Positions 9,001 through 12,000 of a stretch of 13,792 nucleotides of DNA are shown one piece after another. Made by a program: the position numbers. How positions within the stretch are numbered: the stretch's first letter is position 1; the number at the start of each line of letters is the position of its first letter. This stretch comes from a virus (taxonomy: Duplodnaviria > Heunggongvirae > Uroviricota > Caudoviricetes). The stretch lies in IMG/VR virus record IMGVR_UViG_2711768009_000005. One strand, given 5' to 3'.

Positions 9001-12000
9001 CTTACAGCCGTGTGTCGACTTTTTCCGGGGATTATATCCGCGTAACTGACAATAAGGGGAAAACGCACGATGTGCTGACCGGAAGTGATGACGGTCGCCA
9101 CAGCAACACGTCTCTGGCGCACTGACGGTTTCATCGTGGGTGTCGGTTATAAATTCTGATTAGCCAGGTAACACAGTGTTATGACAGCCCGCCGGTTCAG
9201 GCGGGCTTTTTTGTGGGGTGAATATGGCAGTAAAGATTTCAGGTGTACTGAAAGACGGCACAGGAAAACCGGTACAGAACTGCACAATCCAGCTGAAAGC
9301 AAAACGTAACAGCACCACGGTGGTGGTGAACACGCTGGCCTCAGAAAATCCGGATGAAGCCGGGCGTTACAGCATGGACGTTGAGTACGGTCAGTACAGC
9401 GTTATTCTGTTGGTGGAAGGATTCCCGCCGTCACATGCCGGGACCATCACCGTGTATGAAGATTCCCGACCCGGTACGCTGAATGATTTTCTCGGTGCCA
9501 TGACGGAGGATGATGCCCGTCCGGAGGCACTGCGCCGTTTTGAGCTGATGGTGGAAGAGGTGGCGCGTAACGCGTCCGCGGTGGCACAGAACACGGCAGC
9601 CGCGAAGAAATCAGCCAGCGATGCCAGCACATCAGCCCGTGAGGCGGCAACCCATGCGACTGATGCTGCAGATTCAGCACGTGCAGCCAGCACGTCAGCC
9701 GGACAGGCCGCTTCGTCGGCTCAGTCAGCGTCTTCCAGCGCAGGAACGGCATCAACAAAGGCCACTGAAGCCTCAAAAAGTGCTGCCGCTGCAGAGTCCT
9801 CAAAAAGCGCGGCGGCTACCAGTGCCGGTGCGGCGAAAACGTTAGAAACGAATGCGGCAGCGTCACAACAATCAGCAGCCACTTCTGCATCCACCGCGAC
9901 CACGAAAGCGTCAGAAGCTGCCACCTCAGCCCGGGATGCGTCGGCTTCAAAAGAGGCGGCAAAATCATCAGAAACGAACGCATCATCAAGCGCCAGTAGC
10001 GCAGCTTCCTCGGCGACGGCGGCTGCAAATTCTGCGAAGGCGGCCAAAACGTCCGAGACGAACGCCAGGTCTTCTGAAACGGCAGCGGGACAGAGTGCCT
10101 CAGCTGCGGCAGGCTCAAAAACAGCGGCTGCGTCGTCTGCCAGCGCCGCGTCAACAAGTGCCGGGCAGGCCTCAGCCAGTGCCACCGCCGCCGGAAAATC
10201 GGCAGAAAGCGCCGCATCATCCGCTTCAACAGCCACAACGAAGGCTGGCGAAGCCACTGAGCAGGCCACGGCAGCAGCGAGGTCAGCTTCCGCAGCGAAG
10301 NNNNNNNNNNNNNNNNNNNNNNNNNNNNNNNNNNNNNNNNNNNNNNNNNNNNNNNNNNNNNNNNNNNNNNNNNNNNNNNNNNNNNNNNNNNNNNNNNNNN
10401 NNNNNNNNNNNNNNNNNNNNNNNNNNNNNNNNNNNNNNNNNNNNNNNNNNNNNNNNNNNNNNNNNNNNNNNNNNNNNNNNNNNNNNNNNNNNNNNNNNNN
10501 NNNNNNNNNNNNNNNNNNNNNNNNNNNNNNNNNNNNNNNNNNNNNNNNNNNNNNNNNNNNNNNNNNNNNNNNNNNNNNNNNNNNNNNNNNNNNNNNNNNN
10601 NNNNNNNNNNNNNNNNNNNNNNNGACAGCGGCAAAACGGGCAGAGGATATTGCATCCGCCGTGGCGCTTGAGGATGCGAGCACGACGAAAAAGGGGATAG
10701 TACAGCTCAGTAGTGCGACTAACAGCACTTCCGAGTCACTGGCGGCAACACCAAAAGCCGTTAAGGCCGCGTATGACCTGGCTAACGGGAAATACACCGC
10801 ACAGGATGCAACGACAGCACAGAAAGGGATAATCCAGCTAAGCAGCGCGACCAACAGCACGTCTGAAACGCTGGCGGCAACGCCAAAGGCAGTAAAAGCA
10901 GCCAATGACAATGCTGAGAAACGTCTGCAGAAAGATCAGAACGGTGCGGATATCCCTGGCAAAGACACCTTTACGAAAAATATTGGTGCCTGCCGTGCCT
11001 TCGGTGGGTCAGTAAGCACAACAACAGGAAACTGGACGACTGCACAGTTTATCGAGTGGCTGGATTCTCAGGGAGCATTTAACCATCCATACTGGATGTG
11101 CAAGGGTTCCTGGTCTTATGGCAATAATAAAATCATTACTGATACTGGCTGCGGTAATATTCATCTCGCCGGAGCTGTCATTGAAGTAATGGGGATAAAG
11201 TCAGCGATGACGATCCGCATTACCACTCCGACCACATCCAGCGGTGGCGGAACAACCAACGCCCAGTTTACCTATATTAATCACGGAACAGATTATTCAC
11301 CTGGCTGGCGAAGGGACTATAACTCCAGAAATAAGCCAACGGCATCAGAGATCGGGGCGCTACCGTCAGGTGGAACAGCAGTATCATCAGTTAATCTGGC
11401 TTCAAAAGGTCGGGTAGCCGCGCTGACAGACAATACGCAGGGGGCAGCAGGTCTTGAGTTATACGAGGTGTATAACAACGGATATCCAACAGCGTATGGA
11501 AATATCATTCACCTGAAAGGGATGACAGCCGTTGGCGAAGGTGAGTTACTCATCGGCTGGAGTGGTACAAGCGGTGCTCATGCTCCGGCATTTATTCGTT
11601 CACGACGGGATACGACCGACGCAAACTGGTCGCCGTGGGCGCAGCTTTACACCTCGGCTCATCCTCCTGCAGAGTTTTATCCAGTCGGTGCACCAATCCC
11701 GTGGCCATCAGATACCGTTCCGTCTGGTTATGCCCTGATGCAGGGGCAGACTTTTGACAAATCTGCTTACCCGAAACTTGCAGCCGCTTATCCGTCAGGC
11801 GTGATCCCTGATATGCGTGGCTGGACGATTAAGGGCAAGCCCGCCAGTGGTCGTGCCGTATTGTCTCAGGAACAGGATGGCATTAAATCGCACACCCACA
11901 GCGCCAGCGCATCCAGTACGGATTTGGGGACGAAAACCACATCGTCGTTTGATTACGGCACTAAATCCACGAATAACACCGGGGCGCATACGCACAGTCT

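Follow-up and report, generated by a model that had tools for sequence, protein, structure and literature searches.

A lambdoid side tail fibre carries two independently shuffled fibre modules in its central segment

Results

Organisation of the stf locus

The window analysed here is the whole 13,792-nucleotide (nt) stretch of the IMG/VR record IMGVR_UViG_2711768009_000005, which represents the tail end of a lambdoid prophage with the gene order tape-measure, M, L, K, I, J (5075–8572), a lom-like open reading frame (ORF), stf and tfa. The side tail fibre gene stf (9224–12379, plus strand, as are all features of the gene described below) is a single ORF that opens with GTG at 9218 and is likely to start at ATG 9224, giving the lambda-like start MAVKISGVL. 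Its product is a lambda-type Stf: residues 1–134 match the Pfam family phage_tail_N (E = 2.2e-72), the C-terminal tip is gp37-like, the gene follows J and lom, and tfa (12379–12960, plus strand), a gene for a tail fibre assembly chaperone (Pfam Caudo_TAP, E = 4.6e-44), lies directly downstream. Two Phage_fiber_2 repeats (10679–10933; PF03406, E = 1.2e-40, in two stretches) slightly overlap the left end of the segment under study, 10913–11650 (738 nt, Stf amino acids (aa) 566–811). This segment is made up of two separate fibre modules, A and B, both of which occur in the fibres of other phages.

A sequence-only reading had described the segment as some 245 residues that do not resemble lambda Stf, and this proved correct: BLASTP gave no alignment of the segment to lambda orf-401/orf-314 or to StfR of the K-12 Rac prophage, and its coordinates were right to within ~40 nt. 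In blastn comparisons, homology to lambda ends at 10896 and is back at 11687, leaving a gap of 10897–11686, and homology to Rac StfR ends at 10956 and is back at 11646, leaving a gap of 10957–11645. At the protein level (BLASTP) the lambda homology breaks off after ATPKAVK and restarts in the C-terminal block, and that to Rac StfR ends with '...KDQNGADIP' and restarts with 'F[IY]RS.RD...YPVGAPIPW'. Colinearity of the central region with lambda or Rac Stf, which that reading itself had named as an observation that would count against it, was looked for with both programs and was not found, positions 10957–11645 being unaligned in protein and in DNA. The conserved C-terminal block that it had placed downstream of the segment is present. 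Lambda Stf (orf-401/orf-314, the stf of Ur-lambda) and Rac StfR share with the present Stf the phage_tail_N domain, the Ala/Ser-rich repeats, a Phage_fiber_2 repeat, the gp37-like C-terminal block (70–76% identity) and the downstream tfa, but have unrelated sequence, ~260 aa in lambda and ~350 aa in Rac, in the place of modules A and B.

Module A

A tblastn comparison with phage genomes divides the segment into its first ~148 aa, module A, and its last ~100 aa, module B. Module A (10926–11345, about 140 aa, limits by blastn) is a globular α/β fibre domain common to P2 gpH, Mu and D108 S′ and P1 S′v. In the same tblastn comparison its identity is 82% with P2 gpH and 71–74% with S′ of Mu, D108 and SfMu; the module is also found in P1 Sv′, and in the distal fibre subunits of T4-like Vibrio and Aeromonas phages the identity is still ~50%. 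In a phmmer search of the PDB sequences there was a sole strong match, 8JU3 (E = 6.6e-75), in which segment residues 4–184 align with chain residues 182–362. This entry, a crystal structure from phage Mu with the title 'Tail fiber protein S, S'', is Mu gp52, the G(−) fibre (PMC11821841), and its primary reference, as cited in PMC11915804, is Mori et al. 2024, Virology 593:110017. The similarity to the module shared by Mu S′, P2 H and P1 S′v (8JU3 residues ~182–330) extends over the whole module, the three-dimensional fold is the same, and here too the module sits inside a tail fibre gene, with a Caudo_TAP-type chaperone gene directly downstream. An AlphaFold2 (AF2) model of the whole segment, built on a 56-sequence alignment, gave module A as an α/β domain with a predicted local distance difference test score (pLDDT) of 74–94, and module B with moderate confidence.

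The left joint of module A is formed by a 25-aa junction motif (10913–10987), the final stretch that the present protein has in common with Rac StfR. The same motif is present twice in Mu S′, with one copy over the gix-encoded peptide at the Sc/Sv junction.

The segment had been credited with four cysteines in a short span, whereas it has three, all of them in module A (codons at 10991, 11099 and 11150; Stf aa 592, 628 and 645; C27, C63 and C80 in segment numbering); the remaining cysteine of Stf, aa 22, belongs to the N-terminal domain. Among homologues, whose cysteine counts are not phylogenetically independent, C63 (50 of 55) and C80 (53 of 55) are near-invariant and C27 is found in 39 of 54. 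Two further cysteines of other members, C65 and C88, nearly always occur together, with both in 22 homologues, neither in 30 and C65 only in 3 (not corrected for phylogeny), which suggests a paired feature that would be missing from the present allele. With three cysteines the module is here in its minimal state, compared with five in P2 (C27, C63, C65, C80 and C88) and in P1, and four in Mu, whose fourth, C84, is absent from this allele. No recognisable Cys-rich or metal-binding domain type was found in module A.

The linker and module B

Modules A and B are joined by a linker (11346–11407) that has no DNA homology to P1, P2 or D108 and is modelled with low confidence, the pLDDT falling below 50 at segment residues 153–190 of the AF2 model. 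The Pfam family PF21446, Gp34_trimer, gives 18.5 bits (E = 0.003) over segment residues 115–174, under its gathering cut-off of 27 bits, and 12 of the 56 homologues match it at E ≤ 0.001. Judged by these profile scores, the present sequence stands at the fringe of the family and is not a member of it.

Module B (11408–11655, limits by blastn) is a six-stranded all-β fibre domain of ~90 aa, belonging to a widespread type of fibre-shaft domain. When modelled alone it gave a six-stranded β domain with a pLDDT of 77.8 and a predicted template modelling score (pTM) of 0.70, and the folds that match it best are those of fibres, spikes or receptor-binding proteins, with T4 gp34 and the R2 pyocin fibre among them. 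By tblastn, the module B region matches fibres of P1 (S), SSU5, Goslar and many Vibrio phages. Its real spread became visible in an exhaustive search: a word-indexed search with module B alone returned 27 proteins, mostly short fragments, whereas the exhaustive one, over 1.84 billion representative proteins, returned 663 clusters, 391 of them at E ≤ 1e-10. The ~90-aa core is found at widely varying positions in proteins of 200–2,200 aa and in up to three copies.

In Mu, module A is followed by another domain; is module B related to it? In an hhalign comparison only the last 27 columns aligned (probability 38%, E = 3e-4), and the link consists in a common terminal motif, '...RSxRD...W..YT...KP', so that homology of module B with the second domain of Mu S′ is possible but weakly indicated, the alignment being suggestive only. 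A PDB profile search was rejected as support for this relationship, since the profile was contaminated by module A columns of full-length rows and contributed nothing specific to module B.

Base composition of the segment

The segment had also been described as visibly more A/T-rich than the flanking stf sequence, a difference that turned out to be weak. Its GC content is 0.503, against 0.549 in the 288 nt upstream (chi-square p = 0.21) and 0.528 in the 729 nt downstream (p = 0.36), neither difference being significant, and it lies at the 13th percentile among all 738-nt windows of the coding part. The GC content at third codon positions (GC3) is 0.472 in the segment, equal in effect to that of the downstream part of stf (0.475) and close to that of tfa (0.461). 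The contrast had been noticed mainly against the Ala/Ser-rich repeats, which are GC-rich (0.618, and 0.678 at the first and second codon positions) because of their amino-acid composition. A true step in GC3 lies further upstream, between the tail genes with the Stf N-domain (0.61–0.69) and the distal half of stf with tfa (0.46–0.55). Composition was therefore rejected as a sign of recent transfer, both the chi-square tests against the flanks and the GC3 comparison being non-significant, and the lower GC of the segment is no evidence for a recent import.

Modules A and B are shuffled independently

The 147 homologues that were retrieved comprise 75 with module A only, 24 with module B only and 48 with both. 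In the last group, module A precedes module B either directly, as in this allele and its diverged relatives, or with a gap of 122 aa; in others module B precedes module A, with gaps of 3, 58, 62 or ~100 aa. A and B are thus two independently shuffled modules, and both orders exist in nature. The segment had been proposed to be a horizontally exchanged domain. The exchange is borne out, since lambda and Rac Stf lack the segment, which is present in the fibres of P2, Mu/D108 and P1 and in T4-like Vibrio and Aeromonas fibres, but what was exchanged is two separately shuffled modules and not a single domain.

A comparison with the known systems shows how different the surroundings of these modules can be. 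P2 gpH is colinear with the present Stf over a stretch that comprises the Phage_fiber_2 repeats and the whole of module A (78% DNA identity over 10671–11343), and the 82% aa identity extends over 148 aa (gpH residues ~336–483); unlike here, its N-terminal part serves baseplate attachment, and this part and the C-terminal tip are both unrelated to those of Stf. The P2-like phages fiAA91-ss, vB_EcoM-12474V and the Yersinia vB_YpM phages group with P2 in this respect. In Mu and D108, module A comes directly after the gix inverted repeat and forms the first block of the variable S′v. The Mu G(−) protein S′ (gp52, 8JU3) continues from the module into a different second domain and a Mu-type tip that binds lipopolysaccharide (LPS), with the chaperone U′, and the module lies within an invertible G segment. 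Here, by contrast, module A leads into module B and a T4-gp37/lambda-type tip, and there is neither an invertase nor a crossover site.

P1 is grouped here with the P1-like and SSU5-like phage-plasmids. Both modules have counterparts, with a DNA identity of 77% for module A and 71% for module B, in its S/S′ fibres, which carry Mu-type tips and are switched by the invertible C segment. A tblastn match of 97% coverage, in two pieces, gave P1 the appearance of one colinear match; this was rejected, as translation of Sv′ shows the reversed order, module B, ~58 aa, and then module A. The module B homologue lies in the inverted repeats at the two ends of the C segment (AF234173, 3573–3820 and 7159–7406) and is common to both alternative fibres, S and S′, whereas the homologue of module A occurs in Sv′ only. 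The long tail fibre of T4 (gp37 tip, 2XGF; gp34, 5NXH and PF21446) differs in that neither gp34 nor gp37 shows significant sequence similarity to the segment itself.

Possible route of acquisition

We infer that the lambdoid stf acquired the modules when fibre genes of unrelated phages recombined. Recombination could have taken place at short conserved joints, 'KDQNGADIP...' on the left and '...RSxRD...W...YT...P' on the right. In the classical view, as summarised in PMC3945230, genes of the stf type were passed between unrelated phages, both temperate and virulent, and fibre-associated invertases probably assisted in this; the article calls the horizontal exchange of such fibre genes well documented, citing Haggard-Ljungquist 1992 and Sandmeier 1992/1994. 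As to an invertase cassette in the window, of the kind formed by Mu G, P1 C and the P segments of e14, Rac and Qin, no recombinase ORF was found downstream of tfa, where there is only AT-rich non-coding DNA and then the insertion sequence IS1. A relic of an invertase crossover at the left junction was likewise considered and rejected: the D108 gix repeat and P1 cixL were compared with the whole window and no convincing site emerged, the best match to the D108 gix core being 18/26 at an unrelated site, as against ~11/26 (by eye) at the module junction. If invertases took part, they would have left no trace in the window, and homologous recombination at the joints would be an equally good route.

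The distal tip

Outside the segment, positions 11675–12376 encode a C-terminal block of collar, HxH needle and head. It matches PDB 2XGF, the receptor-binding tip of T4 gp37, with E = 2.9e-84 (query 9–242), over the collar and the HxH repeats, and the Pfam family Collar with E = 3.2e-12, plus additional Phage_fiber repeats. The block shares 70% identity with lambda orf-314 and 76% with Rac StfR, and at the DNA level the 3′ end of stf together with tfa is 93% identical to lambda and 96% identical to Rac. From this homology, 11675–12376 is the probable receptor-binding part of Stf.

Within the tip, 12014–12193 is a variable insert, delimited by gaps in blastn homology and coinciding with a gapped, divergent stretch of the 2XGF alignment. 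It differs from lambda, from Rac and from the NH-21 allele, which is otherwise 98.7% identical. The gapped stretch of 2XGF corresponds to what we take to be the distal 'head' of gp37 (Bartual et al. 2010). The insert, more so than the segment, is the most likely determinant of the host specificity of the fibre.

Discussion

Function of the two modules

What, then, do modules A and B contribute to the fibre? We consider it probable that they are two structural 'beads' of the shaft, which would set the spacing and register of the trimer and hold the tip. The two modules would fold independently of each other, between the Phage_fiber_2 repeats on one side and the gp37-like tip of collar, needle and head on the other; they would extend the shaft, hold the three chains in register and bear the distal tip, and the tip together with Tfa would perform the primary recognition of the receptor. 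This interpretation is consistent with the PHROGs database, in which both modules are found only in 'tail fiber protein' families or in families of unknown function, and with the internal position of module A, which in P2 H, Mu/D108 S′ and P1 S′v as well lies at least 150 aa away from C-terminal tips that are unrelated to one another. Several points weigh against it. The structure predictions are of monomers, and in the literature examined no direct functional data on module A or module B were found for any phage. In addition, module A belongs to the host-range-variable part of S′ in Mu and P1, and the Stf alleles diverge at exactly the position of the segment, both of which would also fit a role in specificity.

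These last two points are shared with a different interpretation, in which module A, module B or both bind a surface glycan or protein along the shaft and thereby provide a second contact of lower affinity besides that of the tip. This would account for the location within S′v and for the fact that allelic replacement between Stf proteins has a hot spot in the central region, and module A is predicted to be a compact globular α/β domain, unlike a simple shaft repeat. However, module A remains 70–82% identical across P2, Mu G(−), P1 C(−) and the present Stf despite unrelated tips and different hosts, which one would not expect of a specificity determinant; moreover, no lectin or carbohydrate-binding-module fold was matched at convincing scores, and the gp37-tip homologue already provides a receptor-binding site. 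Accessory binding of this kind is therefore rather unlikely, though it deserves to be kept in mind, and a receptor-binding module in the segment, as had been suggested, is unlikely to be the main determinant, given that the homologue of the T4 gp37 tip sits downstream of it. A related idea, to which we would give little credence, is that the knob of module A holds a conserved accessory ligand-binding site, for example for an LPS inner-core or envelope element, or a metal- or redox-sensitive site at C63/C80. If it were true, unrelated enterobacterial phages would have a common point of first contact that is independent of their variable tips.

The resemblance to Gp34_trimer raises the further idea that the end of module A and the linker act like the C-terminal domain of T4 gp34, nucleating or locking the trimer independently of Tfa. 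We regard this as improbable: the score of 18.5 bits falls short of the gathering cut-off, the region is the part of the model with the lowest confidence, and the idea is better seen as one form of the structural explanation than as a competitor to it. An enzymatic domain, glycan-degrading or deacetylating, had been offered as well. Some fibres and spikes carry depolymerases, and this general precedent is all that speaks for it, the searches having given no support. NCBIfam returned no match to the segment, and Pfam returned no enzyme family, only the sub-threshold Gp34_trimer; neither a β-helix nor a hydrolase or lyase fold of the kind seen in depolymerases and tailspike enzymes was found, the sole significant structural match was the Mu fibre, the best fold matches of module B were fibre or spike proteins, and the models of the segment contain no enzyme fold. 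The computations effectively refute this proposal, and its chances are minimal. Between these explanations, a structural role of the two beads in a trimeric fibre is the one we infer from the present comparisons.

Distribution and significance

Among 5,426 complete E. coli genomes, 1,382 contain a match to the 738-nt segment, with a coverage of 80% or more in 800 of them, and 630 records have a match of at least 99% identity. The allele also exists in isolated phages: stf is 96–98% identical to that of PhiR68_2, SPF_0923 and mEp460, and the whole stf-tfa allele is 96–98% identical in these three and in PhiR26_1, PhiR42_1 and PhiR29. It is a common allele and a case of ordinary tail-fibre mosaicism, with no new enzyme or receptor domain. 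Descriptions of the mosaic relationship between the fibre genes H of P2, S of Mu, S of P1 and stf of lambda go back to 1992, and the fold of the module has been in the PDB since 2024, so that the sequence-only reading was a correct observation of an already known phenomenon, confirmed in part as to what it observed and supported in part as to how it interpreted this.

Beyond annotation the finding matters little. Annotators may describe the protein as a lambda-type fibre whose middle consists of a P2-H/Mu-S′ module and a generic β module, and the place to search for host specificity is the gp37-like tip, especially ~12014–12193, not the Cys-containing segment. The locus is nevertheless a clean worked example of shuffling at the level of modules and possibly useful for the engineering of chimeric fibres, in which the joints 'KDQNGADIP...' and '...RSxRD..W..YT..P' could be used because they mark natural splice points.

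Other features of the window

Three masked runs of N are present in the window, at 519–975 (457 bases), 1627–2152 (526) and 10301–10623 (323). The last of them lies inside stf and outside the segment, with the loss of ~108 codons of the Ala/Ser-rich repeat region, so that the true number of repeats and the length of Stf cannot be read from the window; the stf coding sequences of related alleles measure 3,024 to 3,402 nt. Directly upstream of the stf start codon, at ~9186–9212, there is a GC-rich hairpin with a T-run (cagcccgccggttcaggcgggctttttt), which has the appearance of an intrinsic terminator separating the lom-like ORF from stf. The lom-like ORF (8643–9125) encodes 160 aa, compared with 199–206 aa for the annotated Lom/Ail at this place in NH-21 and lambda, and may reflect an upstream start, a truncation or a different allele. 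Wholly inside the 3′ part of tfa, at 12722–12920 (plus strand), a match to Rfam IS009 (RF02111) was found with 218 bits, against a gathering score of 117.

The stretch from tfa to IS1 (12990–13700) is strongly AT-rich (GC ~0.29–0.33) and holds tiny ORFs only, including one on the minus strand (13226–13327) for a hydrophobic peptide of 33 aa. Its counterpart in the related genome NZ_AP017610 has no annotated gene, and Rac and Qin have pinR and pinQ there. The left terminal sequence of IS1 (GGTGATGCTGCCAACTTACTG...) runs from 13710 to the end of the window at 13792, and the junction of tfa, AT-rich DNA and IS1A was found at 99.5% identity in 280 E. coli genomes. In NZ_AP017610.1 (8070–9832), the stf-tfa end lies ~3.5 kb from ybhB-bioA, the chromosomal side of attλ, and the interval between them contains IS1, an AraC-family gene and fragments of integrase and transposase genes.

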